Part shown: positions 4,240-41,302 of the stretch, piece by piece
Layout of the letters: each line of letters opens with the position of its first letter
How positions within the stretch are numbered: the stretch's first letter is position 1
From: Cyanidioschyzon merolae
Taxonomy: Eukaryota
Reading direction: 5' to 3' (one strand)
Assembly (NCBI GenBank): GCA_000091205.1
Contig: AP006494.2
Length of the DNA: 64,000 bases
The notes under the pieces: generated by a model
Database searches by the model: none
Told to the model about the DNA's origin: nothing
The model's input: only the letters and a program-made list of their open reading frames with translations
Position numbers and translations under genes: made by a program

Positions 4240-4599
4240 ATATGCGTCCAGCTGAGAGTCCGGAGCGTTCTGGGCGAACACTCCGGATGACTCAATGCAC
4301 GGCGATGGACGTGGTGCGCTCGCTGCTGACTTGTCGCTCACGCAGCAGCGACAAGTCACGAGAAAACCCTCCATGAACGCACTGCATGATACTCGCGGAA
4401 TCGAGGCCAGCAACTGCGGTCTGGTATCGTTTGGCTAGTGCGCGCTGCTGCCCGCTCTTGCGTCTTCTCCCGTGGGTTACACTCGTATCCGATGAACATG
4501 GGAGAATAAACAGCCCGCCCGGTACCTGCCTAGCCACGGGGTTTTGGGCTTGTGTCGATGTACAGATTGCCTAGTCGAGGTGCAGCGATAATGTATCAC

Positions 4600-4624
4600 G
4601 GATTCACGTGTTTTTCTAGGATTC
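4600..4624. repeat. Copy 1 of a recurring intergenic motif: ggattcacgtgtttttctaggattc, with two GGATTC half-sites about 19 nt apart.
   Basis: Compared by eye with the copies at 12816-12841 and 41277-41302. Confidence 0.4.
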
Positions 4625-6395
4625 TGAATCGACTCTGCATGGTTCCATTGACGTTTTTCTCCATATCTTCGATCGTTCCGTTCGAGAGCAACGCTTAGGC
4701 GCAGTCACAAGCGCTGCTGGATCGTCGAGTATCCATGATCGACGTCATTTTCTGAGGCTTGCTTCATACGATCATGTCAGCGGATCACTGAACATGTTAC
4801 GATGAATCATTGATCCGCCTCGAAAGGCCAATGAATCGGTATTCGTGGCCATGCAGCAGGAGCAGCAGTGGGATACTTTGCATACACCATGCATCCGGAG
4901 GCTCCCGTCTCTTCTGGTTGCATAGAAATGGGCCTTGGAGTTTCATCTTCGCAGCAACGGTGTTTCGTGGAGCGTTCGTCAACGCTCTGGATGACGGGGC
5001 ATAGACGGATCGAATTCGTCGATTGCTTCTCCAATCTGGATTTTACGTGCGGTACTCGTTTCATCGTGGACAACATCGCGTTTCGTGATTGCTTTGTCGA
5101 ATGGAACAGCGTGCACATGCGTCTCCGGTAGACAGCGTACTCGCACTGGGAATCGTCAAGCACGAGCTTGTGATCCCCCGGTGTCTGGCATTGTGTGCAG
5201 CAGCAACGGAAACCAGCATCAAATTGTATCACCTGTATGTGTCAAGGGCATGTACCGAGCGATGAAGCAAGCATGGACGCGCCGCAGTGCTCCAACCGGA
5301 CCAAGAGGTGTGATATTCATTCGGGGAACCGGTAACCGCTGTGAAATGTCACCGCTTTGAGACGCGCGCTAAACCTGCATACAAAGACAGCGTGATCCCC
5401 GGGGAAGCGAAGCGTAGATCGACATGACGCGCTGCGCGTGAAACGCTCGAACAACATCCCAAAGTGGCGACACACGAAGCTGGAGCGCCAAGAGCAACCA
5501 GCACATATAAAGCCGCAGAAACGAGTGAGGACAAGGACGCAGTCTCAGATCAAGCATGCCAACACTGGTGTACACCACGATAATGAACGACGAGACGCAA
5601 TCTTAAGCGTCGACGCTCGAGTCAGAGGAGCATCTCCACGCAACGCGGACACGGGGTGCAGGACTAGGAATCCGATCTACAGTAGAGATCGAGCCAGCGA
5701 ACTGTACCTCGGTAGCGTACCCATATCACCTGATGCTTTCGAGTTGGTACAGCTTACCGAATCACGAGCAATCTCTTAGGATGGTATGCTGCAGCTATGC
5801 GGTGCGTCGACGCCGCGCCCCCGAACGCAGTACCCCGACAGACGGCCAAGCACAGGCGCGTGTTTCTCTCCGGGTAGGTTTGCGTCTTGGCATATAAGAC
5901 GCGATCAGGGCCAAGTCTAGGTAACGGAGCGTACATCCGTTTTCGATGCTATCGAGTACAACGTGTCCAAATGGACACATGATTCCCGCAGATGACGCGC
6001 AACTGGGACACTGATGAATACGAGCGGCCGGCCTGATGCTCCCGCAAGGCGCCACGCTTCCGACAACTCGCTTTCGTATGCGCAAGCACGCGCGCATGCA
6101 CCCTTTCAACACCCTGGAGCGCCATACCCGCCTCCATACGCCCGAGTGATGCTCCAAAGCGCCGCCTTGCCTCATCTCTACTGCACGCTTCGTCATCCGG
6201 TGCAGTGCGCCTCCAATATCGTGCGACGGTAGGCGCAGAGAAAGCGCCAGTGATCGCTGGCAAACACCAGCGCGCCGTTCCCTGTGGACGCACCACACAC
6301 TGCCGCTCGACAACGTTACCTCCATAATGCTGAGCTGCAGCCGCATCGATGGAGGCATCTCGAATCCCGGTGTGCATCCGCGCCTGTACAACGGA

Positions 6396-9300: not shown

Positions 9301-11156
9301 CCCCTGGAAATGCTCCAGCCTGGAGCTCGACAGCCATGCTCGTCAAGAAGTTTGCTCGCATGATGGCAGCACAGTGTGAACAGGAGCGTTGATCGACTAG
9401 AGAGTTCTTCCGACGGGAGTACCGCGCAAACCTGGAAGCAGGCGCGGAGTCGCAACTGACTTGAATCGCTCGTCACGAGACGCCCCGGCTGGGGTGCGTC
9501 TTGCGTCCAGCGTCGCGATGACAGCGGCGATGCCCAGGTTTGCCCGGCGGGTCCGCGCGCTGCGTCACCGTACGCGAGCGAGGCGCCCGGTTGGACCGCG
9601 ATCCCGGCATCCGCTGGTAACTGACGGTCACCGGATTTCTTTTCCAGGACTGCACCGTCACAGCAAATGCATTCTACCACATAGTCCGCGAAGCCGGAAA
9701 TGCGCAACGCCTCTGCGTCTTCCCAAAGGACGGCGTTCTCGTCGGCAGAGCGCACTGCGGCTGCGAGGACGCGCCCCAGCACCTGCAGCATGCCACGCAA
9801 GGAGCGCAACGCGAGGAGATTCAGCTCGAGGAAGTACGGCTGTGCGATGCATCGTTTCAAAAAATCCGACCATGGCGCCGACAAGGCGACCCGTCGCCAC
9901 CCGACGAATAGGTTCTCGGAATGCATTCGAGGTTGCACCTTAGCTATGCGCTGACACATGACGCTCGACATGGAGAGCACATTGGCGGCGTCGGCTGAGC
10001 AGGCACACCGCAGCGCTCGATGTGACACGAGTTGCATCAGTCGAGTGCAACATGAAAGCGCCGTCTCGGGGCTCATATACGCTCCCAGAGCTTGCATGAG
10101 CAGGCGCATGGTGTATAAGACACGCGTCGTCGCATTCGCCGCCTCGATGGCGGTTTCCCGATCTTGGCTACACTGAAGAAGCAGCTCGTGATCGAGGAAG
10201 GCGAGCAGCGCCTCAAACGCATCACGGCAAACGGTTCCGAGACGCTCGCGCCAACTAGCTGAATCAGAGACGGGCCCGGTGACGGCCGCTCGATAACCAA
10301 AACGGCACTGCTGCATTGCGACTAGCGGCTGACCAGCCTTCTCCCGGCACTGGGCGACTGCCACAAAGAATTGCAGAAAAGCACGCATCTCATGCCATAC
10401 GCCGTCCAGGCTGGCACAATGATGAGCAACCCCAACGAGGTATACGGTTTCCAGGGTGGAGGCGTCACCTTCAGGCCGCGCTCTCGAAATCTGCTGTGTG
10501 CATTTGGACGTGACGCAGCATCCGCTCATGGCGTTGTGAAGGTCAAACGCCCGGCTCGTGATCTGACAGAGCACCTGCAGAAGCGACGTGGTCAGGGCCC
10601 TCTGGCGACTGCTCGGTTTCAACGCTCGCTGCGTGGCCTGCTCCATTGGCGGCGGATTTGGTGCAAGCTCGGCACTGCCAGCAGCTACCGCAGTTGCGAT
10701 GCCATGAATCAGATACGCCAGCGCCTCGCCAAGCGCCGTGGCAGTAGCAGCAGCAGCAGCAGCAGCAGCCATGGAACCCTGCGACATCCCCAACGTGCCA
10801 TCCAAACCAGCAGGCGACTCGAGGAGCTCTAACCAGTCCAGGGCATACTGCAGCCTTGTCGCTGCACCCCGGTGATGCTCATCGGCGAGCACACGCACGA
10901 AGCACACAACACAGGGCTGTGCAGGCGCCAACGATCTTGAGCGCGAACGTGCAGCTCTTTCCAAGATCAGCCAACGACTTGGCTCTCCTGGATGCAACTT
11001 TTCGCACTCGTTCGAGTGGCTTTCCATCGAAGAAACCCCAGCGAAGTTTGATGTGTTTGTGAAAGCAACCCGACACAAAGACCTGCAATGACACGAGCGC
11101 GTACACACTCCAGAAATGCGTGCATGGAATACAAAACAAAGTCTGCAGCGCAGCAC
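6396..11156 (-). CDS. Large 1586-aa protein of unknown function. It is rich in Leu, Ala and Cys and probably all alpha-helical-repeat. It has an internal polyacidic stretch (DDDDDDQHDDIVDDDGDGGAGGDVGGDDDDNNNN), a second Asp run, and a poly-Ala/Ser stretch.
   Basis: A single uninterrupted 4.76-kb ORF in GC-rich DNA, which is extremely unlikely by chance. I recognise no catalytic motif. The antisense + ORFs inside it (8317..8988 and 8574..9392) are low-complexity artefacts. Confidence 0.7.
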   Translation of the reverse strand: MLRCRLCFVFHARISGVCTRSCHCRSLCRVAFTNTSNFAGVSSMESHSNECEKLHPGEPSRWLILERAARSRSRSLAPAQPCVVCFVRVLADEHHRGAATRLQYALDWLELLESPAGLDGTLGMSQGSMAAAAAAAATATALGEALAYLIHGIATAVAAGSAELAPNPPPMEQATQRALKPSSRQRALTTSLLQVLCQITSRAFDLHNAMSGCCVTSKCTQQISRARPEGDASTLETVYLVGVAHHCASLDGVWHEMRAFLQFFVAVAQCREKAGQPLVAMQQCRFGYRAAVTGPVSDSASWRERLGTVCRDAFEALLAFLDHELLLQCSQDRETAIEAANATTRVLYTMRLLMQALGAYMSPETALSCCTRLMQLVSHRALRCACSADAANVLSMSSVMCQRIAKVQPRMHSENLFVGWRRVALSAPWSDFLKRCIAQPYFLELNLLALRSLRGMLQVLGRVLAAAVRSADENAVLWEDAEALRISGFADYVVECICCDGAVLEKKSGDRQLPADAGIAVQPGASLAYGDAARGPAGQTWASPLSSRRWTQDAPQPGRLVTSDSSQLRLRACFQVCAVLPSEELSSRSTLLFTLCCHHASKLLDEHGCRAPGWSISRGVHQQQSRFLLELLTVLRKLVKTTGIPCHEQVIRQFAALVSDLSQQRQRAGIGCSAPIRHALRGMFGALAQRLRIAECTRCPAADQERVFASCLLQQLQRGIGADQGRSLLETLYACDKFRDLVESAAQVASAASGSAALARSFIVETLPTCVLHRAAVEASGFADTGTVTALDASGEQGPSPAASTRHREHQRRVRERHATGRMPAVDDDDDDQHDDIVDDDGDGGAGGDVGGDDDDNNNNHVFSCAQTSVAPRLWCWWLIRIWPILQPLGKNLEECHRLIRAAQHPILLWRISFLALHTEPSRTELLPAIASVLHSLMRCLCNLPCIRYEAVLPVVCSEDEARTPRRVLLHDDDDDDASTGDAASSFVTGEALVESLAAMRTLLGYTAASSPSVPCTPLAWYAQVQRTLLEKRARQAVRSVLAQPTGSQRFHKCFAGRQPELFDWLDALSVSRMPETSADLFPGTEVRGQSAQTTWKDNVIFLWMHWAGSRLPVNLVSWLLEQVPLHEWMMATSSEATEAVSESWRVHAIAAAIRQRAAPWRHWRQVLLLTLRTNDRARFVQFADAWFRSLPGQCPNASETQALMDAIHRSQVLPWLLSGLHASLDRPGAPDARPLQVPDTLHRQDYARRMALVRVAGALLWDELRQRVRRAAHPAGTSQLVSSRSDLAAHLCELAASEYALGPADLLSALSAMQALALTLVQTDADAGDAAERASAYLGHMGRSVASWLQQVSGQDHDARSPCQELVLVGCLGFVAIIGAASTVRRASTLHALRVVTGAVAGGEPAASPWCFWLRILWNAPPFSRVQLLALWILYIFLRWRVLSVENAQDLVLLHGLGCWLYTEREAAMMHVRDADSESSQSTEEAIPWAAEFLALIGVLSAALVQVLESGTGRDANLDAMQRASATSLRLLTTSPGDESAASAGTGDGWTKQELASTVSHRLLWHVAALVESPLHVIRDAERRK
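8578..8690 (-). repeat. Coding trinucleotide tract inside the 1586-aa gene. On the + strand it reads (GTT)n(GTC)n(GCC)n...(ATC/ACC)n(GTC)n and encodes the Asp/Asn/Gly-rich acidic insert.
   Basis: Directly visible. A second (GTC)7 tract lies at 8226-8247. Confidence 0.85.
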
Positions 11157-11191
11157 GCATTATAGACGCTGATGCGTGCGCTGATGGAGAC

Positions 11192-11262
11192 ACGTCATTT
11201 AGCGCACGCATGAACGCACGCATGAACGCACGCATGAACGCACGTCATTCAGCGCACGCATG
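11192..11262. repeat. Tandem 12-bp minisatellite: the unit cgcacgcatgaa in 3 perfect copies plus flanking partial copies (acgtcatt[t/c]agcgcacgcatg on both sides). It lies 35-105 bp upstream of the start codon of the 1586-aa gene.
   Basis: The repeat is directly visible at 11204-11239 as gcacgcatgaac x3. The + ORF 11120..11404 translates it as ARMNARMNARMNAR. Confidence 0.8.
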
Positions 11263-12815
11263 CGTAAACTGCGATCGCATGGAATGCGCAACGTGCTCAG
11301 GTGCCAGCCGGATTCACCTTCTGTGTGTGTGTGATCAGCAAAACGACAAACGTTCTACGACCATGACGGGTAAATATAAATACCCTTTCACAGACGCATC
11401 CTAGGCTTATTTGACCCGCCGACTGCTATCGAGTTCAGTTTTTCCTTCTAAACTTCGAGCCTGAGAGGCTGTACCACCAAGTTGGCTCGCGTCAACTCCG
11501 CGGGTCTCTTGTCTTTGGCACCGCGCATCGACTTGTATATTAATCGAGGCGTTGACGTCTCGGCTCACGAACTCTTTCCGTGGATTGACGCAGGTTGAAT
11601 CCATCAGTGCAAGAAATGTTAGAACTCGTGCGCTCTCTGCCACTGCAGTCTCATCGTTATCCTGTCGGGCAAACATCTTTCCTCGCCTATCTATCCTCTA
11701 CTTCTTCTATGTCAATTGCTCTTCTTCGCTCGATAGTCGACGACGCGAACATGTTTCGTTCTTCTCTGGCATCCGGCAATGACGGCCGTTCAGGATCCTC
11801 GACGTGCATCTCCAGACCTGTCTCTTAGATTCTTAATATCTTCAAATGAACGCGCTCGGAGCGCAGCTGCTGTAAACCGCGGAAAAGTATTTGATGACAC
11901 GCACCTAAGCTTGGAACATACTTGAGATGATTGACTAGAAAAGCGCACTGAGCGACTGAGACGCTTCTGCTTGCGGGCTGCTCAGTTGCATGGTGGCATG
12001 TGTGTGCGGGCTTCTCATGCTCGAACAGGGCGCACGTGCGCATCTATACTTCATGGGAGCGACACACGCGCGACGCTGAATCAAGCGAGTCCCGCGGGGC
12101 GCTGCTATGGAAGGGCTGGCGAAGCCGCTCGGCGATAGCTCACTCGTGGCGTTTTAGCAGCGACACCAGCGGCAGCTGCGACAGATACAAGTGCATGTAA
12201 TTGATGCGGGTGGCCATGTGCTCACTCGGACGCCTCTCGAGGCAGGTGTTGCGCGTTGGGACGTCCGGTCCACGGTGCCGCAGGTACCACGAGGGTATCG
12301 TTGCATAGCGTCTGAAAGCACGCGCACTCTTGGAACAAGTCACTGGTGTTGCAGAAGTATTTGCTGCGTGTAAACGCGAACTCTTTTGAAGTCTCGTGTG
12401 CGTGTAAATACCACGGTACTTCTGTAGAGCGGGCAGCGCGACCTCCACGTGACGTCTTTCTCACAGCGCCTGACCTGAACGGCACTGTCCAGGCGGACGA
12501 AAGCTGGAATACCCGTGTGCGGCTTTGCTTCCTTGCGTTAGTCGGGTCTGCTCGAGCTCACGGTTGCACAGGTCCCGTCAATACTGCTCAGTCGTTTCCC
12601 AGCGACCGCGGTATCACCAAGGTCGCAACACGTCGCCCCAGGCGTCAGCATTGTGTGCACGATTGGTCAAATCGACAGATCGATCAGGCACCTCGTCCGG
12701 TGTCCGATGAACGTGGCGTACTGGACTGCTCGCTGAGTTCCTGCTGTTCGATCTCTTTTCTGAACATTTATGAATGCACGTTCGCAGCACTCCATGTACA
12801 GAAGACAGGAATTAC

Positions 12816-12841
12816 GGATTCATACGTGGTTTTAGGATTCG
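12816..12841. repeat. Copy 2 of the recurring intergenic motif: ggattcatacgtggttttaggattcg.
   Basis: It matches the copy at 41277-41302 at 24 of 26 positions. Confidence 0.45.
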
Positions 12842-14495
12842 TGATCATCCTTTGGGTATGCCTATCGACGAAACCGCACGCTATACCCTCTTGATATCTC
12901 GCGCGGGAAACGTACGCAGAGGTGTACATCTCGTCTATTTGCATGAAAACAGGGGTTCTTGGACCCGGAGTTTATTAATCGCAGCGATTGTGTCTAGCGA
13001 GGAACGCATCACGATTGTGCTTAAAGCGAGTTTAGAAAGATCGAGATTTTCGCACTGGTTCTTTAGGTTGGATGCCCTTCCAGTACTTGTCATATCATGG
13101 ACATGCTATTGTTCCACGATTTCTCTATGTGATGTACCAGTGTGCGCGTGGGTTTCCACAGGATACAGTACTCGTCGACGGGCCACTCAGAGCAATTTGG
13201 TTACTGTGGAATACGACACTAGACGCGGGCGCACACGAGGCCATCGCGGGCAGCCTCTCTCCTTGTCACCGGAATGTACCGAGCGATCATGCAAACGTTC
13301 ACGCGTTACAGCGCGACGAGTACCAGGAGGACGAGGACCGGTGATCATGGACATATGGGATGCTGATTACATTCAAGTGTCACTACTGCGAGTGGCGCAC
13401 CGAGAATCTATCGAAAAAAAGACGAAAATGGCAAGCAGAGTGTAGATAACAACTGCCGTCTGTGCATGAAACGCGTTGTCAATAACCGGAAACAGGACAA
13501 AATGTACCTTAACAATGCCATCGACGTTCTTCCACTGCTTCTAGTGAAGCTTGGTACCAGAAGAGACCTGTTTATTTCAAGCCTGACGATATGTAAGAGA
13601 AACGGAAACTGTCGAAGAACAATCCCACAAATCCTAATAGTTATGACAACGAGAAGAACTGAGTTTGAAACGCGTACACCCGAGTTCGATTCCCCGTTCC
13701 ATTTTCTCCTGAAGCAGCTGTCGTGGAACGTGGCAGAGGTCTGGAACGCGACCGCGGGCGCTGCATCATTGATCAGAAGCCTCACTGATAACCAACGCGT
13801 ACTTGGAAATCCCTGGTCAATGTAAAACGCTCTCCAAAACGATGGAAAATGGATCTGGTGCTAGAAGCAAACCTTTCCTGAAACAGTGCAGGCATCGACA
13901 TCTCGTACGCGCTGTACTGTGGAGGTTGCCAGAAGAAAGAAGCGCGCCCCAGTTCGGCGCGACGCAGCGCCAAGCAATGTGAGCGGGCGTTGCGCTCAGC
14001 GTCCAGCATTCTACTTGCCCATGTTAGCGAGGCAGCCAACACGTTTACGTCTAGAGCCATTGGATCTGGAAACCCTCGATAGGGTGATTCAGAGACGGCA
14101 CGAGGAGCGGGCTATTCCGGAGCGAGCGACGCGGGACTTGGCGCCGGCCGAGCAGGACAGGACACTAGCTTCTGGCAGGGCGAGCGTCTCCGCCGGTCCA
14201 CCGGGCGTTGGCGGTAAGCTGCTGCCGCGTGGTGCAGGTCTGACGACGCGTCAGCGCATCGGTCTTGAATAGCGCGCTCTGCAAGCTTTCGGTAGCTCGC
14301 ACTCCGCTCGACGCTTGAAAGGAAACCGCGCGACCTTGTGCAGTGTTGGAGCTCCGCGGAAGCGCCTCCGAAACGGCGCGTCGGGGTGCTCCGGCACAGC
14401 ACCGTTTATGCTCAGGTGCCGCTGAACAAGGCAAGACTAGACTGAACGCACGTGCTTCACGCCGGGATATGATATCTGGGCAGCGCGCTACACCT

Positions 14496-16616: not shown

Positions 16617-19313
16617 TGGGCACCTGACCAGCTCTCAAATGCAAGCGTAGTTCAGCAACACAAACACACACACGTCGTCCTTGTTGACGTCGCTGCACTG
16701 AAGCCTACGCAGCGTCCCCTGTGCGGCCACCTGAGCACCGCTCTGTTTGCACCCTATTGCCCACCTTCAACGCTTAAGTGCGACAAAATCCACAAGAGCA
16801 ACCTTCGCTCCGTAATGGGACAAGGTGCAGTGACAAGGAGGTGGAATACCTCCTGGTACTTGTTTCACCTCCAGTTCGTGCTCGTCAGCAATCGATATCG
16901 AGCAGTGTCAGAGTGGATTTCATCGCGATACCCGTCGAGGCTTCTGTTTGCGGGCTGGCTCGAGTGCGCACGCGCCTTGTGGCTGCAGCGTACTGTGATT
17001 CGAAGCAGCGGCGGCGGCAGGCGGCGGCAGGCGATGCGTAACGCGAACGTTTGAACAACGGCCGCCGATGCACGCTGAGACGGCGGCGCGATCCGGGGGG
17101 AATGCCCGCGCTAGCACGCATGCCTGTGCAGCTGCTGCGCTGGCGCGATGCTACCATGGAATCGCATGCATCCAGCGAGGATGGACCTCTGCTTGTGTCT
17201 ATGTGGATTTGATATCGATGATTGGGATAGCGTCTATCAAGCCGCGTCCAATGTTCAAGTTCCAGACGCGTAGGCTTGGGAGCGTGCGCACCGGCCTTGT
17301 TATTTTCTCTCATCCCGGTTTTGGTTCGCACTCGGTGCAATAGATAGCAGGTGATCGACATCACAGTGCAATGTACCGTATAGATCGTAGATGAATTGCC
17401 TGTAGGCTATATATGCTTTCGTGAACAGTGCAAGGCGGACTGCATTCCTCCTGCGGGTAAGTCGTACCACAGTAGTCAGATGGTTGAAGAACGCTGAAAG
17501 AAACAAGTAGATGCGCTCAGCGCCGCATACTGGTATTGTAAAAGACCACTTGCGGTCAGCGGCAGAAGAGCGTCTTTTTGATCACCTTACGGCAAGCGAA
17601 AAGCGACGATCGTATCAACCAACGGCGTCTCTGTTTCTAAGTAGCTTGTTCGTGTAGCTCTAAAAACAATGCGATACGATCGCGGAAAAGAGTTCAGTTT
17701 CATACACGGCCATCTTCCACGCAAAACGCAACTATACGAATAGTTCCTGGAACTCAACGATCGGTATGATGCACAGCAAGAACGAAAATAGGCATTCACG
17801 AAGCTCATCGGATGCACTAGAACAAACTTGCACCATTGTCTTCGCGGACGAACATATGCGTATTCTGATATGCGAGTGCACGAGCAGCGCGTCTCTCTTG
17901 TTGGCTACATGCATACATTCATACATGCATGCAAGTAGTAGTTCTCTAGTGGCATCGACCATGTGCGTATGTTCACCAGTCAGGCATTTTTAGGGAACGC
18001 AAACCCGTATCGCAACTCCGCCAGGATCACCTGTCTACCGCTACCTTACCGCGCGATGCAGTATACCACGGTGCTTGGGCCACTTGCAGTGCGTTCGTCC
18101 ACACAGTATGGGCCAAGTCTGGGCATACACGCCATCAGGATATCCGTCCGGCGATATGGAGGGAAAGTTTCAGCGTGCGCGCTTCTACCGCCCAGTCGAA
18201 AGGCACGGGGAACCAGAGTCGCTCGCTGCCCGGATCCCGAGGCCCTGGCGTATTGAAAGACTGCTTAAACTTCGGCACTGAGAACATAGCAGTTGGACTT
18301 TGGCATGGATACGCCAAATTTTAACCGCGATGTTCATAGGGAGCAGGGAAGGCGCCTTGCGAAGAGCCTCACTGGCGAAGCGGCAACATATCCGGCTTGG
18401 TACGAGCACGGGCTACAAGCGCAGCTGGTCGGTTCATCAGGCCCCAAATACAGCGAGGGTAGTCTGCATATCGCCATAAAATCGTTCTCGCCTTGCTCTT
18501 GAAAAAATACCCCTGAAGCTGATCCATTCACTACGTCACATGCATGATATGAGGAGGAACAAATGCGCTTCCCGTTAAACTGCGTGGGCGCGTGCTTGAA
18601 CGGCTTACTGCCTGGGTATCTGCTCGAGTTTCCGCGTGTATGCTTGCGTAGCGGCAATTTGATCAACATTCATGCACCTTGTATTCGGTATTGCGGTGCC
18701 TTGAACGCATTTTCGCTTCTCGAGAAGAATCATTTGGAATCGGTCAGGCGTTTCGCAAGTACTCCTGTTTTGACGCACGACAAAACATGAACGTGGTTCA
18801 ACACGCCTCTTCACCAAAGCTCCCAGGCAAGCTCCAGATTTCAGCTGGGTTTCCAGTTTCAACCCAGGCGCCTTGACGATCGTGAACATGCGGCCTGCAT
18901 CGATAAACAGCAGGAAAAAGGCATAGCGCTCAGATCATCGGCGCGTTCTCGATCGTATCGTTTTTGTGTAGTTCGACGCTCAGTGCTCATGAATGCAACT
19001 TTAGCAAGAGATAGAGATGGGGCTGTTTCAAAGCAGACACGCTTGCGCCATTTTCGTCACCATAACATCCAAAGCGTATCGCCATGGGTAGCGCTCTGAA
19101 ATCACCGCTCGGTCCCTACACACGAACAACAGCTTGCGCCCTTGTTGTAAAACGAGCCATACGAGCCCCGCTGCGTGTCGTTAGTGCGTTCGTACGCGCC
19201 CAGAACCGCTATTCTGTCGGTGCGCTCGTCGACCTGTCGCTTGAGCAAGAACACCAGCAACTGTGCATACCGCGCCACTGCAGTTGTGCTCTCAATCCTG
19301 ACCTGTGCACTGT

Positions 19314-25109: not shown

Positions 25110-26553
25110 GAAAACAAGCTGCCCTGGGGCCTGCGGAACCTAGATGCGTCAGCGGCGGTGCTAGAGCTCGTTTGCTGGTTACTAGCAGGAGTTGCGCCCC
25201 TTTGCGGGGGTCTGGTAGGATGCAGCGGTACAACTCATGAAATTGGCTACAGGCATGAGCTTGCCCAAAGGCAACACCCTCGATCAGCTAGGAACATTAG
25301 GTTGGGATTGTCAGGAACTATGACGACCCAGTAACTGTTCGGGTATACAGAGCACGGTTTCCAGCGACGGCAGCCGTGCTGGGAATCGCGCACTGAGCGT
25401 GGGAAAGCTTCAGCGCTCGCTTTGAGGCGGCGCCACTTGCGTGAAGGGCGCGTCGCTCTCGCACATATCTGTATCCGATCAAATACGCAGAGCAAACTTT
25501 TCTCTCGCGACTTTCAGAGAAAGACAAGCCGTGCAGCGAGCAAGTGCTTGCACTGGGTCCTGCTGTGGCGTTGGATCCATACTGGGTCTTGTGCTGCTCA
25601 GAAAAGCCGTGAGGAAAGGGAACAGCGCCGTTCGCGATAGACGACCTGCACGAAGAACGCCGGAGACTCGAGACCTCCGTTGAACGACCGAAGTGGATGG
25701 GAGGCATTCACCAAAAGAGTTCTTCGAGAGTCGTCTACTTGCGGACCTGCATAGACGCACAGTGCCCACTGTGAAGCTCAGCGTCTTGTCCATGCGCCAT
25801 GCAAGTTGTTCATGTGGGGGCGCTTGAAACCCATAAAAGTACAGCTTTCAAGCGGTTGGGTCGGTTCTGCAACTTTCGATGGTTATGGTCCTGCAATATC
25901 GCTGAATCGAGTCCAGTACCCGAATGCCAACCGACATGTGAAAATAGAGAGAATACGCGAGTCATCGCGGTAGCAGAGTGCATAGACCACGGATCTCCTG
26001 GGTCATGATCATGAGACCCTACACCTAGTTCATTGGGTCGCAAAGTTCCAGCGGATGCGTCCAGCTAACCGCGCCCGCAAAGTCAACCACGCTGTACTCG
26101 CCTAGCCGCGAACCCTTCATGAAAGCTCTCGTTGTCTATTCGCTTTGAATGAGGGCGTGCTGCTTCAAACAGTATCCGGTTTCTCTACGAGTCGGTCACT
26201 TGACCGAATCACTGAACGTGTGCTATGCTCAGGCCGCTGTGTCCGCTCTTGGACACTATGCAGGATGCAGCGTACTTGTGAGTATGTGTTCATAGGAGCG
26301 ATAAACATTTCACAACCATGGGGTGTACATCTACATCCACTCTCAGACGCCTCCCAGGCTTTATTGAGCGGCGGCCTGCAAGCGGTCCCAGTGTACCCCG
26401 GCACACACTCCGCGCCTGAGAGGCTATCCGACAATGTTGGCGAGCATCAGCGTCGCGGGTCTGGTCTTCAGCATCACACGTTTTCTGAGCTCGATGCCGG
26501 CGTTGTAGTCTCGGTTCAAGAACTCATTTGCTTATTGCATCAGGTGGAACATG

Positions 26554-27027
26554 TCAATGCAAGGGTTCCTCGAACTCGTCCTCTCTGTGCCTCAATAGTC
26601 TCGTCATCGTTCCGTATGGCAGACGCGTTTTCTCGACCAATTGCCCGATTCTCCTTGTTCTTCGCAACTTGCTCTTCTTCTCTCGATGGTAGACGAGAAG
26701 CAGAGATTTTCGTTGTTTTTCGGCAGCTGGCGGCACCAGGTGTCCATGATCCTCGACTTGAATGTCCACACACATTCCTCTTGGATTTTTTATTTCCTTA
26801 AATAAAGGCACCTCTTTATGACCGTAGGTAGCGACCTTCCCGGACAGGGAAGAACTTGCGCAAGCACCACGAAATGTGCCCCAGTGCCACCATGTACTAT
26901 ACGCTTCAGCGATTCGCCCACTGGGGCACTCGTTCCGTTTCCCGATGAAGAACACTCCTTCAATGAGATTGAGCCACGGGGCGTACAGAGTACTGAAATG
27001 CAGCTCTAGCCCCGATACAACCCGCAA
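26554..27027 (-). mobile_element. Decayed fragment of a Tc1/mariner-type DDE transposase. The minus-strand translation reads LYAPWLNLIEGVFFIGKRNE, which resembles the conserved C-terminal transposase block (L)PxYSPDLNPIENxWxxLKRK. Frame interruptions lie upstream.
   Basis: The motif is at about 26929-26988 on the minus strand. No intact transposase ORF surrounds it, and terminal inverted repeats were not identified by eye. Confidence 0.4.
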
Positions 27028-28184
27028 AACCTCGAACGAAACGTGAATGGCGAAATGCCATGCTGATCAATACAAGGACGTTGCCATACATCAGGGAAAA
27101 GTCTTCAGCGATTCGACAAAGTGCTTGGTGCTGTTGTATGAGGCTTCCCTACAAGCCAAACTGAGGCCGCAGACTGAACCCACTGCAGTTCGAAAAGAAG
27201 ACGCCGTCGTTGTCTTCGAGTTCAATCGGACCTACAACGAACGCCCGCTTCGCAAATACCCACGTGGGATACGACCGCATCATCCGATGAATGCCTCATC
27301 GTCTGGAGAAAGAAACCGACGACCCCGTGCTTCACACCGATAACGGCCTTCTAGGAATGAAGTGCTTGCAATTTCAGGGGAAGATGGCCGTGTGTGAAAC
27401 TGGATTCTTTTTTATGATTGTAGCCCAGTGGTTTGGGGACCACACGAACGAGCTGCTGAGAAACAGAGACACCTGTTGTGGCTGCTATGGTCTCTTTTGC
27501 CGTAGGTAATGTGCTGAACGTGTTGTTTTCAACCCTGGGCCGCTGACAGTCTTGGAGAATAGCAGTTTTTGAATCGCATACTGCATATACTTGTTTCTTT
27601 CGGTGGTCCTCAACCATCTGAGTACTGTGACACGACTGACCTGGAGTAGGAATACAGTCCCGCTTGCACTGTTCAGGAAATAAAATATATCCTGCATTCA
27701 TAATGTCGACAATCTATAGGCAACATTGCATAGTCATGTCGTTTTCCTTCTACTCATCGAAGCTGCGGTGGTGGAACAGAATTGAGTCTACAGACAAGCA
27801 GCGGCTACATCTGTTGCTGGAAGCGTACCCGAACGGCCTTCGGCGGCGACTGCCTTCGGCCAACGACGACGCCCTGGGGTTTTCCAAGTCTTGGACTTGT
27901 TAGCGCTTCGCGCTGCTACGGAAACGACGACTTCTGTGGTACTCGAAGCGCAGGACTGGCTGCTTGGTTTTCATACGAAGGTTCTCGCGAGGCCTCCAGA
28001 ACTCCAGCGATAGGTTGACGCTCGCGTCACTCTTTGCGTGTTCGTTTGAGGCAGCACCTGCGGACAGTGCTTTTGCGTTCAAACCCGTACTACACGTCGC
28101 ATTTGTAGCTCTCTAAAACACTCTTCTATTTACAATAGACGAAAATTCCGTGCTTAGAAGTTTAAGCATTCCTCGCCTCGCGTC

Positions 28185-34200: not shown

Positions 34201-34611
34201 TTTGTCCGAAGTGCGTTGGAGCGATACGGGAGCACGGCGCGACGCATTCCCTGGCAAACGCTGCGTCGCCGTGCGCTAGTCTATGCCCGAATGCGTTGTT
34301 CGTTTTCGGCGAGAACTGCTCGTCACTTTATTGCCGCGGTCGAGGACGAGCAGCGGTTTATGCATGCGAGCGCGCCAATGATGCCGTCTGCGGACTCGCT
34401 TGCTACCATGAGAATATCTGATCCAGATAACGATGATGACGATGAAGAAGAGGAAGATGACGACGAAGACGAGGAAGAGGAGGAGGATTTTGAGGATGAA
34501 GCGCTGTACGATGATGACGACGATGATGATGATGACGATGATGATGATGACGACGATGATGATGACGACGATGATGACGATGATGATGATGACGGCAAGC
34601 GCGGTGCCTAA
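31210..34611 (+). CDS. P-loop ATPase of the DUF815 type (AAA+-like). The ATPase core reads LDDLVGYDEIKQAFIQNIKYFIAGHYAHHTLLIGAHGTGKSALVKAAAAEFYRMGLRLVQL. An N-terminal extension of at least 500 aa and a C-terminal polyacidic tail of about 60 residues (D/E) flank it. The likely true start is an internal ATG at about 31747-31807.
   Basis: The block D-LiG-e-k..l..N...F..G.pa.nvLLwGarGtGKSslvkA...e....gLrlvev is characteristic of the DUF815 family found in bacteria, archaea and plants. The first ~200 codons of the maximal ORF are Cys/Gly/Arg-rich and are overlapped by other open frames. They are therefore probably 5' leader rather than coding sequence. Confidence 0.7.
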   Translation: MLSRLGTSRGGSSGAGARTLPKLSPSPQALPRHSVQRCGCSCCGEQHYSPELMLVDVNVAALGSRERSQGWLPKEHSSACLGGFVGPCWNVKGAPRGASNSTGAQYTCTGQLRSSLCAHALHASREQCMGGRGRASLSCASLVGGRSRRAELFTRCPGAAGRLRSTGRFPPRLLPAGQLMDSGARSMYAQATGGAKGHPMNGDVPREPASPNDKRIESEGELNTDAIAKADAANEHKRGRPATPQRSPKAPENATGKGGKRKDREVFTALEAFGLVPSRRRDDQPQMRRGRKTKSGWIFTIISEALLGSKGAPLKREEKQQLVALESRLVSMVRELSASPPLSQPAEDIRQAWLILDRIRSLVFYADVLNDTYVASFILALKGVVSSALLLGMGTDFLEQSASEHHGMNAERDAPGGRLLSSVATRARNTRKRRSQRNDDPRRPELVSRMNDQLVEEILASGDTIDNHWLAPLDSKWASAPWKTPFMQFYRNLTELRVKQGQTWEGHILDLTLHPTNIFAQSLQRSRGLNNAASSTDPNMDAENASLNDQEMIPGLQVVPSGDAVSEAELTEQSTASEASWYDLDGRTIAAMVRQDLDILQSLCAWSLHRLARCIALSLMGLTEDELEHLYQQLTFNSKQSAQGESSEHTAFDAAESLVVLLAREAPSTISLLENGLVAHHPVPRAVVADALEQSLRSLLFKSALSAVGAAGIPQHRWSQFYPLIAKRIRLRGDGILGQYFMLYYSNREQCFRPVESADTVRLDDLVGYDEIKQAFIQNIKYFIAGHYAHHTLLIGAHGTGKSALVKAAAAEFYRMGLRLVQLDSGYFGAAQGLGTLPIVRIQKSRAKSRLTEQDIPFGTLGLMHDMQGIAKEAVNHPHLRFLLFIDDVPLDERDPRLVALRGIMSGGLLTLPKNLIIVATCSSSVSGPDLFALSVTSTEEDFIQSGKYRFRRRLRVVPYVDLYEFFSGLSDETIIFLDRFGMVLTFNSPSKSKYLDFVRSALERYGSTARRIPWQTLRRRALVYARMRCSFSARTARHFIAAVEDEQRFMHASAPMMPSADSLATMRISDPDNDDDDEEEEDDDEDEEEEEDFEDEALYDDDDDDDDDDDDDDDDDDDDDDDDDDDDGKRGA
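34425..34600 (+). repeat. In-frame (GAT/GAC/GAA/GAG)n trinucleotide tract encoding the polyacidic tail of the DUF815 ATPase.
   Basis: Directly visible as gatgatgacgatgaagaagaggaagatgacgac...gatgatgatgacgacgatgat. Confidence 0.9.
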
Positions 34612-37264
34612 CGTGCATGCGTCTTCGTTGGTGGTTCCGCCTTACGAGCAGCTTGCCTCAGTAAGCGCTTACAATCGCCTCGCACTCGAGCGACTGCACG
34701 TTCAACGACAGCTTCTGGTTTCGGACCATCTCGATGATCATCGATGGAGGTCGAATACGGTATCCGTAGCAATCGGAAATCGTTCAACTAAAGGTACAGA
34801 ATCTCTGTGAAGGCAACTCGTTGCGTACGCTGTATGTGCGGCGTGCACTTGTTCACTTATGCTGCGGCGGGGTCAAGCGGCAAACCGCGAATGTAGGTGT
34901 CCATGAGCGCTGTGCGTTTCCCATGCAGCGGCGCATGGTCTGTTCGAAACCTCTCGCCAGTGTCGGCAAGGCGACGCATCCAACGAAGATACCACATCAG
35001 TCGCCTCGAGCGCTCATCCTGACTCGTGGATGGGTTGCATTGCTCCGCTGTGGCGGTGTTACGTGAGGACGACTTTAATGCGCTCGTTTCGAGCCGGAGC
35101 TACCAACGGTATACGTCGTGCGATGGCCGGTTTTCCATCGAGAAGCCGCACGCGTGGCTGGTTCGTGATGCTCATGGAGGCGAAGAGTCGGCTTTGGAAG
35201 CTTTAGGAGTTTTCGATACACCTCTTGCTACGTATCTAAGAGTGCTCTTTTCGTTGCTGCAGGGGAAATGGAGAATGTGTCCGGCGGGAACGGTGCCTAG
35301 CGTCTTACGCCAGCGTTCGAGGTTGGATGGCGAACCGAATAATTGCTGCTTGCGCGATTCATTCATCATGCGAAACGCAATCGAATGAGCAGCATGAGAA
35401 AACCCCCGATTGAAAGTGGTACACTTACACGAGAATTAGAATGGAGCGCGTTGACAGAGCCAGGTCATAAGTGGACGCTCATAATTCAAGTTATTTCGCT
35501 TGTCGTGACCAGTAGACTTTTTGGGGATATGGATGTGACGGCATGCTTTTCCGCTCCTGTATCTCCAGTTTTCACACGCTGATCTCGGATTTCAATCGCG
35601 TTGTCTTGTCATGAGTCGAAGGATGCTGATAGCAGCGTGCAAGTCGCGATTTCGCAGATTCCAGCTGTTGCCGACAAGTTTCATGCCTGACGACCGTTGC
35701 ATCTGTAGATCGTGTTCCATTTTCATCCTGATTGTATACGACCCTGGTGCGCGCTTGCCAGCTGTAAAGCACCTGGTTGTCGTCGGGTGTGCTCGGATGT
35801 CGCGCACATTTCCTCCGTTAAGCGCTGCCCAATGGAGCGTAGACGCGTGCATCATCTTTCGGTACATTCCCTCGAATAGCACAGAAGGCTCTGCTCAATA
35901 TCCCTCTCCGTTTTCCATGCTCCGTAATGTACCATATGATGACGGACTTGTTTCAGGGCGATGCCCACAGCGAGTACGGTGTCCGCTGCATGCAAAATCG
36001 CACGCTGCTCTATTCGAAAGCGGATTCCTGGAACGCGACGCTGTCCATGATGAATGCGGACGGAAAGGAAATATCCAGATTAGAGAAGAGATAAAGATGA
36101 TTGGGTCCCTTCGTGCGAAGCGGTGACGCGCTCACCACTCGACGCGATCGCTGCGATGACTATCATCGAAGCCCACGACGCTCTTGCATGCAAACACAAG
36201 CGACCGCAGCCTCTGGGAGCGCATACCCTTATAAGTACGATGACAGAGTCGAACGCCGTTTCTTCAATAGCCATAAACAGGGTGCGATTTGTTTCTCGAA
36301 CGAAATCAATGATTTGACGTGAGGGTTTCTGTGAACGTTGGGCACGGACCTGCCCACAAGTCATCATCATCGGAGAATGTCGAGTTCTCTCTGGTCCATA
36401 TAGTGATACGACTTTCTGCATCCACGCGTTGCCTTGGAACAGCAACATCGAAACCCTGAAAACCCGTGATTCTAGTATGCTCCACGTAAGGAAATCAATA
36501 GACTGGAGGCTTGCACGTACGCGTTGCATCCTGGCATTGGTTATTGTACGAGCCCTTTCCCGAGCGCGTCGCGAAACACGTCGATTCCGGTAACCTGACG
36601 CACTCCAGCAGCGTAGCGCCGAGTGCGCTATGTCGCAAACACAACCGAGAAACCTATAACGACATACGTATCCATAACCCCTGATTCCTACTTTTCAAAC
36701 GTCGAGAGCGTCCCTCTAGGAAACGCTCGGAAGGAAATCCCACAACGCGGGAACAGTGCACGCATACGCGTACCCAATCTGCGCTCGACGCGGGTGTCTC
36801 GCAATTCGCAGCCCGCAGCGGATCGCGAGATCGAGCGCGCGGGGCGCGGGTGATCAGCGCACGGCCGCCGCCGTTTCGAGCAGAAACACCAGGCGCTGCG
36901 GCTGCGCGATGCAGCAATCCGCGCGGCTGCAGCTGCAGATCCGTGAGCGAATTTGCCGATGAGGCGGCATGCGTCTGGCGCGTGTCCGACGCGTGCACGC
37001 GGAGCGGCACGTGTCAGGCAGCAGCGCCCCGAGGTGTACCGGGTACAACTCGCAGTGGGCGCATGTCGAGCAGCGGAGTTGCGTCACCAGGCGCGTGTCG
37101 ACTGGCGTTGGGTCTTAGGAGGCTCTGCTCGACGCCAGCAGGTGCTCCCCAGGAGTTGATTTACACGCTTCTAGGCTTTAGGGCTGACGTCAGTTGCGGG
37201 TAGGTGTATGGCGCGTGTGTCAAAGTGTGCAGTGTTGACTGTGGCTTGAACGCGTTCAGGCTGC

Positions 37265-39067: not shown

Positions 39068-41276
39068 CGTGGACCCCTGCTTCAGAGGGTAAGCATTCAT
39101 GGGAGCTTGGTGACGAGTCCAATGCGCGTACCTCCAATGAGTAGGTTGCGATGCAGTGACCGAGTTGCCGCGTATGCTTTTGAAGGGCTGGATAGGACCT
39201 GGTTTAGCTATCGGCGTTTCAGGCCGGCCAGCGTCATCGATGTTCCTTCTTAGACCCCCTCGATACCTTTGAGAGAGACAGTCAGGGCTTTGAAGCGCGC
39301 GCGAAGCGGTGAGCTCTAATGCGAGGTTTCCTGACGATAGCTCTGGGCATTTGTTGATGGAGCATGGAAACGTTTTGCTGAGATGCCAGGGTCGCTTTCC
39401 CGGCGCCTGGTAGCGTTCCTATATCCAGATGCATCTGATAAGATGCATCTGTTCGGCGCCGTGCTTCGCTTTTTTGAATGCGTTTGCGTATACATAGCGC
39501 ACAGTTGGCGGTTTAGTGCTTCATGGCTCGGATTTAGTGTTATAATCAGCTGCTGTGCTGCGAGAGAGGGGCCTGTTGCGCTCTGGAGACTCCATAGGCT
39601 CTGATGGAGCATGCTGTCAGTTTTCCAGTATCCAAACGCAACCGATCGTGTGCATCCGAATCCATTCCGCAGAACGCTGCAGTTTGACTGCCTCCGCTGC
39701 ATACGCTGGAGTGGCCGAAGTTGCCACTCTCTTCCGTTCGGGCACTGTGTGAGACATTCCAAGAGGAGGCTTCACATAGTGTGGGCGCGGTGGCCCCGCG
39801 TGTACACCTCAGGTTTTCCAGATGGAAGAGATGACTCGGACGCATCACGTTCTTGAGATGACCTCCCCTGACCTTGATCCTCTTTGTGAAGCGATTATGG
39901 TGCCGAGAATCGCGGTGAAATCTGCACACTCTACCGCTTTGTGGGATGCTCTTTCAATTCGTCTTAGATAGGATGCTAGGCAACTGCTCTCATCAAGATA
40001 AACAGGGCTCTGGATTTACCCAAGCTGAGCAGATTGTACGTATGCGTCGACACCAACGGCGTGAGACGCACTGCTGACTATTTCTTGGACGGAAAGCGCT
40101 GTTCGACAATGCGCAGCAACCACCAACTGCGCGATGCGCTCAGACGCCTACCCGTTTGCCACGACGCTCTGGAATTGAGACCTGTCGCTTTCAGACGAGG
40201 CAGCGAAGTGTCGTGTTGGATACACGGCACATTCTTTGCCGTGCTTCGTGCGATAGACTTTGGGACCTCAATGCCCGCCATTCGCCTGTCTGGTAGCGTC
40301 CAGGGAGGCTGACTCTCGGACTTTGCCATGATTGCTGGTCTGTGGTGGCATCATTGCGTGTCAGGTTGAGGCCTGCTCGCGTCCTCCAGGACGCGAGCAT
40401 ATAGAATACCCGTGATCCGGATACTGCGTGGTACAACGGCATCCAATGCTTGAGATTGCCTACCGTGCGGTGCGCATGCTCCGCTGCTGCGTACGGAAAC
40501 GGCAAGCATCACCGTGACCCTGAGGCGCTTTCTCATTCCAGGAATCCTCGATCATCAAGAATATATGAATATCGTGTATGGAGCCGCCGCTTACCAGCAA
40601 ATGGCAACACTGCCTCCGCTCCGTTCGGTGTCGGCAGCTAGGTCAGCGTCCGCAACGTCGGCAAAGCGATCCAGCAACGATACCTGTAGGGCGTCGTTTC
40701 CTCTAGTCGGCAGCGTGTGCAAGCGTTCATAGAAGAGTTGTTTCTCTGTGGCCCCATATAAACAGCAGTGTTCGTGCATCCAGGAAGCCTGTATTCCAGG
40801 CAGCGATCCTAAGTAGGATGAGGCAGCTGGTGTGCGGGCTTCAGGTTTGACGATGTCACGACTCAGCGACGTCCGAGTACTTTGCGACGCTGCCCCTGCT
40901 TGCCCGCGATCGAAGAAAACGCGTTGTGCCAGTGTCAATCTGCGTCAAAACATCAGTCTCTTGACGACACCTGGCGAGGCCGAGCGCTGCCCATCCGAAT
41001 GCAATGCTGTGCAAGGCCTCTTGAAGGTAGCGGGGCAATCGAGGACGCTCGGTAATTCCGTAGCTCTCTGGGGAACGCTCGGATGCGAAATGACTTGCGA
41101 CCCTGGTGACGCTGCAGGGCACAGGCACGAAGCATCGACAGCGCTCGCAGCGATTCATTGCTGGTCACATGAAAATAGAACACGCAAGTGCATGCTCTGT
41201 TCCCGCACTTGGATTTTTTTGAACTTTTTTTCCGATATATAGCCTTGGTATTCAACGTGAATGGACGTATGCTTAG

Positions 41277-41302
41277 GGATTTATACGTGGTTTTGGGATT
41301 CG
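41277..41302. repeat. Copy 3 of the recurring intergenic motif: ggatttatacgtggttttgggattcg.
   Basis: It matches the copy at 12816-12841 at 24 of 26 positions. Confidence 0.45.

Follow-up and report, generated by a model that had tools for sequence, protein, structure and literature searches.

A 25-26-nt motif that recurs in three gene-poor spacers of Cyanidioschyzon merolae 10D is very probably the remnant of codons 15-22 of a transposase, carried by a ~1.37-kb DNA transposon of which six decayed copies lie within the 64-kb stretch of DNA analysed here (the window). It is an ordinary transposon fossil and not a regulatory signal. Our findings establish the repeat family itself, its homology to transposases and to Fanzor1, the codon position of the motif, a transposase/Fanzor junction common to the copies, and a terminal inverted repeat (TIR) at the family level. 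The common junction points to an internally deleted, non-autonomous element of the Mariner-Fanzor1 type, which later decayed.

A Decayed Repeat Family in the Spacers

The sequence-only reading that drew attention to this DNA had quoted three sites, all on the plus strand (4600-4624, 12816-12841, and 41277-41302). They are present, letters exactly as given, and the second and third are identical at 24 of 26 positions. The surrounding spacers are not featureless, each holding a decayed repeat of ~1.37 kb. With a family profile, nhmmer detects six diverged copies that make up 11.9% of the window, at 4.5, 12.7, 41.1, and 62.2 kb on the plus strand and at 36.8 and 46.8 kb on the minus strand, with a pairwise identity of ~50-59%. 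Landmark mapping places the element termini to within ~10-40 nt. Copy c1 (4472-5663, +; E = 3.7e-291) has an internal deletion of ~170 nt 3' of the motif; c2 (12687-13742, +; two nhmmer segments) has an in-frame deletion of ~360 nt between the helix-turn-helix (HTH) region and the first catalytic Asp; c3 (41149-42539, +; score 1082.6) has the best preserved ends; in c4 (62188-63404, +; score 1063.3) the alignment of copies reveals a deletion of the motif region; c5 (35433-36804, -; E = 1.9e-305) is also matched in tblastn by the transposase P0145, described below (E = 9e-9); and c6 (45427-46790, -) scores 1033.6.

No single copy in the window has an intact ORF, all of them carrying stops and frameshifts; the ORF at 12774-13445 in c2, which reads MHVRSTPCTEDRNYGFIRGFRI...IDETARY, keeps the ancestral frame. 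Between raw copies no coding signal was found: piecewise six-frame blastp gave matches in all frames, and the codon periodicity of substitutions was flat. A noncoding repeat, as these raw-copy tests would have it, was overturned by translation of the majority consensus, and the coding assignment rests on that consensus and on external homologues.

The Motif Lies in the Transposase Part

The consensus translation matches Pfam DDE_3 (37.8 bits, cutoff 28.6, E = 2e-9) and NCBIfam IS630 (NF033545, E = 1e-6), and aligns Met1 to Met1 with P0145 over 261 aa (35% identity, E = 1e-32); its first 36 aa alone align with residues 1-36 of P0145 at 44% identity (E = 1e-8). P0145 is a better-preserved transposase of the IS630 family (NCBIfam 127 bits, above the cutoff of 100; DDE_3 95 bits). 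In tblastn it matches c2 (E = 1e-4), c3 (E = 7e-5), c4, and c5 directly, with E values from 9e-9 to 3e-4; raw c3 sequence gives E = 8e-4. Residues 6-40 of P0145 produce a sub-threshold match to HTH_28 (E = 7e-4, 20 bits vs. a cutoff of 25), while Pfam HTH models have no match on the consensus itself. Searches of solved structures with the consensus core, a 9-sequence profile, and the Fanzor tail returned no meaningful match.

Transposase-derived segments were delimited by tblastn and mapping in every copy: 4558-5086 (+) in c1, from start codon to junction, with the consensus transposase; 12774-13117 (+) in c2, with P0145 and the consensus; 41235-41938 (+) in c3, with the consensus at 56-67% identity and with P0145; 62277-62830 (+) in c4; 36028-36715 (-) in c5; and 45998-46705 (-) in c6. 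The c3 segment comprises the HTH region, the first Asp block (IDTM) at 41685, and the second at 41918; the two catalytic Asp are ~76 residues apart. By the IS630/Tc1/mariner criterion, a third D/E is expected ~31-41 residues after the second D. No complete triad is present: after "...IMDNIAFH" all copies are Fanzor1-derived, with neither a third D/E nor a YSP.LNPIE block. A "...TPYSP..." string considered as that block lies beyond the Fanzor junction and is coincidental. Given the incomplete triad, the copies are non-autonomous relics, as expected of a deletion derivative.

In c1, c2, and c3, 42 nt (14 codons) separate the first letter of the former start codon from that of the motif. The motif of c1 spans codons 15-23 (GFTCFSRIL), counted from the ATG at 4558; in c2, codons 15-22 (GFIRGFRI) from the ATG at 12774, in a frame that is still open; and in c3, codons 15-22 (GFIRGFGI) from a degenerate start, ATA, at 41235, the codon just before the motif being now a stop (TAG). 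On sequence homology, the motif is predicted to encode residues ~15-22 within the N-terminal HTH region of an IS630/Tc1/mariner-type transposase. Two other assignments were discarded on the Met1-to-Met1 alignment with P0145: an ATG 9 nt 5' of the motif as start codon, which is codon 12, and another frame, "RYVDGIRYVTGI...", as the HTH. In the transposase frame, GGA TTC ATA CGT GGT TTT AGG ATT reads G-F-I-R-G-F-R-I. The "paired GGATTC half-sites" that had been proposed are a coding coincidence, since the two hexamers sit in different codon phases (GGA-TTC vs. aGG-ATT-C). Nor is the conservation purely at the nucleotide level, as had been argued: the motif was once coding, and stands in different frames today only because the copies are frameshifted pseudogenes.

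A motif scan finds one site per element, at the homologous place, in six of the seven copies that span the region. In c5 (36649-36673, -; GGATACGTATGTCGTTATAGGTTTC) and c6 (46637-46663, -; GAATTCATACGAATTATTTTTAGCATC) the site is degenerate, so that the six copies in the window comprise three clean motifs, two degenerate ones, and one deletion. The 24/26 identity is not unique inside the repeat: among 26-nt blocks in all 15 copy pairs, it is equalled by one other block, with two more at 23/26 and eight at 22/26. The motif would be conspicuous only because chance left this patch the least decayed between c2 and c3.

A Fanzor1 Tail and a Common Junction

The 3' third of the element stems from a Fanzor1/TnpB C-terminus of ~150 residues (hhalign 96.9%, E = 1.5e-10 against published Fanzor1 C-termini). 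A Fanzor1 HMM matches consensus nt 1013-1471 (E = 9e-16), PF07282 matches the tail (E = 2.4e-5), and the Pfam TNB match falls just under its cutoff (24.8 vs. 26.3). Fanzor1/TnpB C-termini are recognized by a RuvC-II Glu, a [TS][TS]-x-x-zinc finger, and the RD of RuvC-III; the tail has the RuvC-II Glu, the zinc finger, and RuvC-III RD.NAA.N, and the signature is present in the consensus ("...VVEICEHLTTVKCHCCE...C...NRDLNAAINIL"). Absent are the Fanzor1 N-terminal half with the RuvC-I Asp and an intact ORF of ~600-800 aa, transposase sequence preceding the ~150 C-terminal residues. Fanzor1-derived segments, from tblastn and mapping, lie at 5087-5515 (+) in c1 (tail consensus, E = 1e-14), 13118-13584 (+) in c2 (...CRLCMKRVVNNRKQ...LNNAIDVL...), 41939-42398 (+) in c3 (...SRDLNLAIYILEQL..., also by HMM), 62831-63259 (+) in c4 (VIIAYGT...MVEIRKDLTPVKARC..., E = 8e-27), 35566-36027 (-) in c5 (...NRDLHAAISILRL..., also by HMM), and 45536-45997 (-) in c6. 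In every copy the junction falls right after the second catalytic Asp, and the two parts are in different frames of the consensus.

The layout of the element would be a 5' TIR of ~32 nt or more, a ~55-nt leader (which puts the start codon ~87 nt into the element), the transposase up to residue ~233 with two HTH regions and the first two catalytic Asp, ~150 C-terminal Fanzor1/TnpB-like residues, ~115 nt, and the 3' TIR. We suggest that the ancestor was an autonomous Mariner-type element with transposase and Fanzor1, in the architecture of PUl-1/PGv-1. An internal deletion may then have given rise to a non-autonomous derivative, presumably mobilised in trans into intergenic DNA; all copies would have decayed neutrally afterwards and probably have no present-day function. 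No autonomous full-length partner was found. We regard the family as an addition, new or so far unreported, to a known kind of transposon. More tentatively, and at less than even odds, it could represent an undescribed ancient non-autonomous family of C. merolae in which the N-terminal two-thirds of an IS630/mariner transposase are fused to a Fanzor1 C-terminus.

Element Ends and Alternative Roles of the Motif

The family-consensus ends show a 32-nt inverted match (score 28 vs. a null of 14.5±3.1, p = 0.003). Among single copies, c3 reaches p = 0.03 (41157-41180 vs. the reverse complement of the 3' end) and the others are not significant; the c3 repeats map to 41149-41180 (+) and 42512-42539 (+). 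Of the two transposon hallmarks to be sought around the sites, the TIR is thus found at the family level, whereas the TA duplication is not clean: with termini placed to several nt, exact TA is seen by eye at c1-5', c6-5', c4-3', and c7-3', and one-substitution variants (GA, TG) at five other flanks.

Besides its coding role, the motif of the active element might also have served the transposase as a subterminal binding site, in the manner of the inner repeats of IR/DR-type Tc1 elements, and this we consider unlikely, if the most credible of the alternatives. The distribution of GGATW fits such a role: in the 5' subterminal zone it occurs at 11.4/kb/copy on the plus strand vs. 0 on the minus strand, and in the 3' zone at 9.4 on the minus strand vs. 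1.6 on the plus strand, each zone ~125-130 nt from its own end and the interior at 1-2.5; yet these counts are non-independent, the copies having common ancestry. The terminal TIR core of c7, TTTCGGATTCAAATGGAG, is similar to the first half of the motif, but a comparison of the 5' terminal core with the interior does not place the motif among its top matches. A shorter related piece, reported at 4594 and 45487, is exact at 4595-4609 only; at 45487 the sequence is ATCACGGATACGTAT, with 9-10 nt in common, a chance-level match. That piece does lie in the 3' subterminal region of c6, on the opposite strand relative to the copy, a point in favor of an inner site. Compared directly, the zone around the motif and the 3' subterminal zone nevertheless show no significant inverted similarity (p = 0.82 for the consensus, p = 0.055 summed over copies), and the motif scan gives only one site per element. 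The motif as an inner TIR copy or a mirrored inner site has no statistical support.

A host cis-regulatory element, original or exapted (a transcription factor site, for instance, in which directly repeated GGATTC half-sites accompany an ACGTG core), is highly improbable. Three clean copies do stand amid surroundings ~54% identical, but the repeat contains other blocks as well conserved as the motif, and in the remaining copies the motif is degenerate or deleted. GGATTC is somewhat over-represented in the window (44 observed vs. 29.7 expected), and 6 of the 44 are supplied by the three motif sites themselves. Nothing supports the cis-element options raised at the outset (transcription factor site, insulator or terminator, origin or centromere motif): the motif is confined to the repeat, where its codon offset is fixed, and it has no consistent placement with respect to host genes. 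Copy c1 is set between a convergent pair of 3' ends, and for c2 and c3 the nearest start codon is 1.4-1.7 kb away. A metagenome scan with a degenerate pattern recovered the orthologous c2 and c3 sites only, plus five unrelated low-GC chance matches. Divergence between strains is 0.66% in coding sequence, 0.95% in the units, and 1.50% in other spacer, the differences being sparse and heterogeneous; that of c2 is lower than in its surrounding spacer, which leaves a small opening for constraint. No structured RNA or tRNA was detected in the window (Rfam at gathering thresholds; ARAGORN).

The transposase-codon reading also accommodates the proposal of a decayed dispersed repeat, which was right in kind, a six-copy family of ~1.37 kb, and wrong in its details (MITE, terminus). 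Homology of the flanks over 1.3 kb makes the motif part of one ordinary repeat family, the outcome that the sequence-only reading had itself named as speaking against a separate motif. A MITE terminus or TIR is very improbable indeed: the family is a dispersed, non-autonomous DNA transposon with TIRs, but the mapped ends refute this reading, placing the motif ~128 nt inward from the 5' terminus and 42 nt into the ORF of a 1.37-kb element with transposase and Fanzor coding remnants, and C. merolae yielded no MITEs in a de novo survey (PMC3964958). Chance similarity of the three sites, favored only by their short length, is refuted and can be set aside almost entirely, given the homologous flanks and the absence of any match in 100 dinucleotide shuffles of the window, against two sites in the window for the 26-mer consensus (up to three mismatches) and three for the gapped pattern GGATTYA-N4-8-TTTT-N0-4-GGATTC.

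Comparison with Known Elements

The unit resembles IS630/Tc1/mariner (ITm) elements in its 5' two-thirds, with a predicted HTH region and two catalytic Asp, in its short TIRs and length of ~1.4 kb, and in its full-length alignment with the IS630-family transposase P0145; it differs in a catalytic domain cut after the second Asp, in the pseudogene state of all copies, and in the unclean TA duplication. Mariner elements carrying Fanzor1 (PUl-1, PGv-1) have been described together with old, diverged transposable element families of C. merolae (Bao & Jurka 2013, PMC3627910). In PUl-1/PGv-1, transposase and then Fanzor1 lie in the same orientation between TIRs, and the unit keeps remnants in that order, but it lacks the last ~100 residues of the transposase and the first ~3/4 of Fanzor1, and its copies are much older. 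Neither the unit nor any other part of the window is significantly similar to the PUl-1 transposase. Eight class II elements, "bacterial-like" with weak E values (0.071 to 6e-7), were reported in C. merolae (Nozaki et al. 2007, PMC1955436). Compared by description, their weak kinship with bacterial transposases fits an IS630/DDE_3-type remnant, yet the present family, with six members in 64 kb and at least eight others elsewhere, already outnumbers them. MITEs are likewise non-autonomous, TIR-bearing, intergenic derivatives of DNA transposons; unlike these (<~800 bp, no coding capacity), the unit is longer, keeps coding remnants, and has the motif internally.

CMe-1A / TE-N2_CMe, the Fanzor1 repeat family published for C. 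merolae (Bao & Jurka 2013), shares with the unit the genome, a comparable age and divergence, and a Fanzor1-type C-terminus; in contrast to the unit, with its IS630-type transposase part and TIRs, CMe-1A was reported without TIRs or classification. We equate it with the 253-copy, 3.2-kb interspersed element of Nozaki et al. (2007), because of the similarity of the ORF to a protein of white spot syndrome virus, for which a Fanzor is listed by Bao & Jurka. Between CMe-1 and the tail of the unit there is only a 12-residue RuvC-III match (E = 0.002). CMe-1 matches instead another family, FamB, at 11391-11652 (-) and 26415-26769 (-), true CMe-1A-type fossils in the window.

Spacer Debris and Rearrangement

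That a striking "paired half-site" motif in gene-poor spacers proves to be a codon-level transposase relic is a warning for the search for motifs in compact genomes. The model alga C. merolae is cited as nearly transposon-free ("0.7% transposons"). A sizeable share of its intergenic DNA in the window is old transposon debris, missed by single-copy similarity searches because only the family consensus revealed protein homology. Fanzors are of current interest as eukaryotic RNA-guided nucleases, and the transposase-Fanzor1 composite is a data point on the carriage of their genes by ITm elements. If the fused family is real, red-algal Fanzor1 genes would once have travelled on ITm transposons, elements left unclassified by Bao & Jurka (2013) would gain a classification, and transposon-derived spacer DNA would lie far above 0.7% of the genome (~12% of the window for one family); the inverted copies c3 and c6 would then have mediated or accompanied a gene-order inversion with respect to sister lineages.

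Outside the window, at least eight further copies occur elsewhere in C. merolae-type DNA, adjoining unrelated genes. In Cyanidiococcus and in a third lineage, the orthologous spacers lack the unit and are 1.3-2 kb shorter. Copies c3 and c6 form an inverted pair that flanks a gene-order inversion relative to the sister lineages, an example of repeat-associated rearrangement in a very compact genome.

Results and Discussion

The motif-bearing unit is an ordinary transposon fossil, six diverged copies of which lie in the window, and the suggestion of a decayed dispersed repeat was thus right in kind. Repeat finding and sensitive self-comparison revealed that the sequence both upstream and downstream of each motif site is also common to the others, and revealed additional copies; a search of the window with a profile made from these copies gave six units and no more. 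These are c1 (4.47-5.66 kb, +), with an internal deletion of ~170 nt, c2 (12.69-13.74 kb, +), with one of ~360 nt, c3 (41.15-42.54 kb, +), whose ends are best preserved, c4 (62.19-63.40 kb, +), in which the motif region is deleted, and c5 (36.80-35.43 kb, -) and c6 (46.79-45.43 kb, -), both with degenerate versions of the motif at the homologous position. Together they occupy ~7.6 kb (11.9% of the window) at pairwise identities of 49-59%. Elsewhere, at least eight more copies turned up as ORF fragments adjoining unrelated genes when the consensus and a 9-sequence profile were used for homology searches. In an eight-copy alignment, conservation rises at consensus ~225-250 and falls at ~1605-1616; between them, the element ends show an inverted match of 32 nt (score 28, null 14.5±3.1; p=0.003), best kept in c3. 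Next to most scorable ends the dinucleotide reads TA or differs from it by a single base, a possible TA duplication blurred by erosion of the termini. A short extra match to the element 3' region (profile positions 1156-1308) at 45270-45427 (-), abutting the end of c6, is a piece of the element tail duplicated locally, also carried by environmental contigs L013 and L015.

The three motif sites (4600-4624, 12816-12841, and 41277-41302, all +) carry exactly the sequences quoted by the sequence-only reading. The 26-mer consensus with up to three mismatches retrieves two sites in the window and the gapped architecture GGATTYA-N4-8-TTTT-N0-4-GGATTC all three; 100 dinucleotide-preserving shuffles gave no match, so the motif is non-random. 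The GGATTC hexamer occurs 44 times in the whole window, against 29.7±4.9 expected, a count that no shuffle reached; 6 of the 44 belong to the motif sites. The 24/26 match of c2 with c3 ranks near the top for the family without being the only one of its kind: among pairwise comparisons of repeat copies, 26-nt blocks agree at 24/26 in one other case, 23/26 in two, and 22/26 in eight, and when all copies are considered, several blocks show better conservation. A related shorter piece is exact at 4595, but at 45487 the sequence reads ATCACGGATACGTAT, a 9-10-nt likeness within chance expectation.

What does the unit encode? No credible ORF is present in individual copies, and pairwise six-frame and codon-periodicity tests for a coding signal in them were negative. 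We translated the majority consensus, which strips copy-specific damage. It reads '...LFVAIDETAF...(76 aa)...FFIMDNIAFH...', and matches Pfam DDE_3 (37.8 bits, curated cutoff 28.6; E=2e-9) and the NCBIfam IS630 transposase (E=1e-6). The consensus and 9-sequence profile searches also found a much better preserved relative, P0145, in a metagenome (contig L020, 3511-4296; ENA ERZ27266011, contig k141_719607, GC 48%), scoring 127 bits to IS630 (cutoff 100) and 95 bits to DDE_3, with a sub-threshold match of residues 6-40 to HTH_28. An alignment of the consensus with P0145 starts at Met1 in both and spans 261 residues (35% identity, E=1e-32). Since P0145 also matches c2, c3, c4, and c5 directly, the transposase assignment is independent of the consensus. 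The called ORF of P0145 stops after '...YSPWFNPIKNVL', with Lys at the place of the third catalytic Glu in IS630/Tc1 transposases; thus, P0145 itself may be inactive or truncated.

The transposase start codon lies exactly 42 nt 5' of the motif (c1 4558; c2 12774; c3 41235, now ATA), and in the transposase frame GGA TTC ATA CGT GGT TTT AGG ATT reads G-F-I-R-G-F-R-I. The N-terminus of the family consensus, 'MDSLDIRCAAIRAYGFIRCFRILGRVFDVAYSTLCR', is 44% identical to that of P0145, 'MYEFPFRVAVVKAYSYIQSFRELSRIFQVAPSTISR' (E=1e-8), which the raw c3 sequence also matches (E=8e-4). By homology, the motif is code for part of the predicted first helix-turn-helix of the transposase. As for the earlier proposals, the repeat is not a MITE and the motif neither its terminus nor a cis-element. 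The direct-repeat look of the paired half-sites is coincidental: the first GGATTC hexamer is read in one codon phase (GGA-TTC, Gly-Phe), the second in another (aGG-ATT-C, Arg-Ile). Present copies hold the motif in different frames because they are frameshifted pseudogenes; in c2, ORF 12774-13445 keeps the ancestral frame, shortened by an in-frame deletion.

Nothing indicates a present function for the motif: it has no consistent placement with respect to host genes, and a metagenome scan with the degenerate pattern returned just the orthologous c2 and c3 sites, besides unrelated chance hits. Divergence between strains (0.66% in CDS, 0.95% in the units, 1.50% in other spacer) is sparse and heterogeneous. 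The motif might once have been a subterminal site for binding of the transposase. GGATW half-sites are distributed mirror-symmetrically in the element, the motif pair lying ~128 nt from the 5' end and GGAT(T/A) pairs, on the strand opposite to the element, ~125 nt from the 3' end (e.g. 13626-13637 in c2, 45487-45500 in c6, 35523-35534 in c5); however, these mirrored pairs are suggestive without statistical support, and direct inverted-similarity tests give none.

Downstream of '...IMDNIAFH', in another frame, the consensus reads '...RILYRMEQRALAHAADSVLAEGIAQNKPVIVEYGTG...VVEICEHLTTVKCHCCE...NRDLNAAINILRLL...'. This 3' third matches Pfam PF07282 (Cas12f1-like TNB / OrfB zinc ribbon) slightly below cutoff (E=2.4e-5). 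A profile of per-copy translations aligns with published Fanzor1 C-termini (hhalign probability 96.9%, E=1.5e-10), and consensus nt 1013-1471 are matched by an HMM of Fanzor1 C-termini (E=9e-16). The Fanzor-like block is detectable in individual copies, and the transposase/Fanzor junction is identical in all. Mariner-type elements in which Fanzor1 comes after the transposase, among them PUl-1 and PGv-1, have been described (Bao & Jurka, PMC3627910); the unit has a transposase remnant and then a Fanzor1 C-terminus. Most simply, it would be a non-autonomous derivative of such an element, produced by internal deletion. Identity with the published C. merolae Fanzor1 family CMe-1A was rejected, the overlap being limited to the RuvC-III motif.

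For C. merolae, Nozaki et al. (2007, PMC1955436) counted no more than 26 class I and eight class II elements, 0.7% of the genome in total, and noted a weak resemblance of the class II elements to bacterial transposases; they also reported a 253-copy 3.2-kb element. The P-MITE survey detected no MITEs in this species (PMC3964958). The bacterial-like description suits an IS630-type fossil, yet six units in 64 kb and at least eight elsewhere exceed the reported class II count; the family is probably new or unreported. Its setting is eukaryotic, with flanking ORFs for AAA ATPase, PAP2, RINGv, LIM, eEF1A-like GTPase, DUF815, and Nramp proteins, the last identical (594/594) to XP_005536883.1 of C. 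merolae 10D. The same copies are present in environmental contigs of 98-99% identity. Cyanidiococcus (L001) and a third lineage (L002-L004) keep the gene order, but their spacers at these places are shorter by 1.3-2 kb, and a profile search found no repeat copies in them. Segment 42682-44816, with a 199-aa gene (42682-43281, +) and an acetyltransferase gene (43722-44816, -), is inverted relative to both lineages. It is bordered by c3 (41149-42539, +) and c6 (45427-46790, -), oppositely oriented and mutual closest relatives (59% identity), which suggests a repeat-mediated or duplication-associated inversion. The composite transposase-Fanzor family and this repeat-flanked inversion are of modest value, the motif itself of little.

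A second diverged family, FamB, forms a direct pair (11322-11853, 26277-26809) and an inverted pair (17345-17731 vs. 27366-27752). The CMe-1 Fanzor1 protein matches it at 11391-11652(-) (aa 640-726, E=6e-9) and 26415-26769(-), identifying both as Fanzor fossils of the CMe-1A type. ORF 26554-27027(-), immediately upstream on that strand, contains 'LYAPWLNLIEGVF' and weakly matches the C-terminal part of DDE_3 (E=0.06), a hint that an IS630/mariner transposase may once have been linked to elements of the CMe-1A type as well. A 69-nt direct repeat (51258-51326 / 51346-51414; 74% identity, spacing 88 nt) overlaps the 3' end of a 2OG-Fe(II) oxygenase ORF (50510-51301) and extends into the adjoining spacer. 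Low-complexity coding repeats, acidic or poly-Gln, are typical of the C. merolae genome; here, the DUF815 protein has a long acidic GAT/GAC/GAA codon tract at its C-terminus (34409-34616), and several CAG/CAA (poly-Gln) tracts lie within large ORFs at 156-222, 3093-3540, and 10728-10785.
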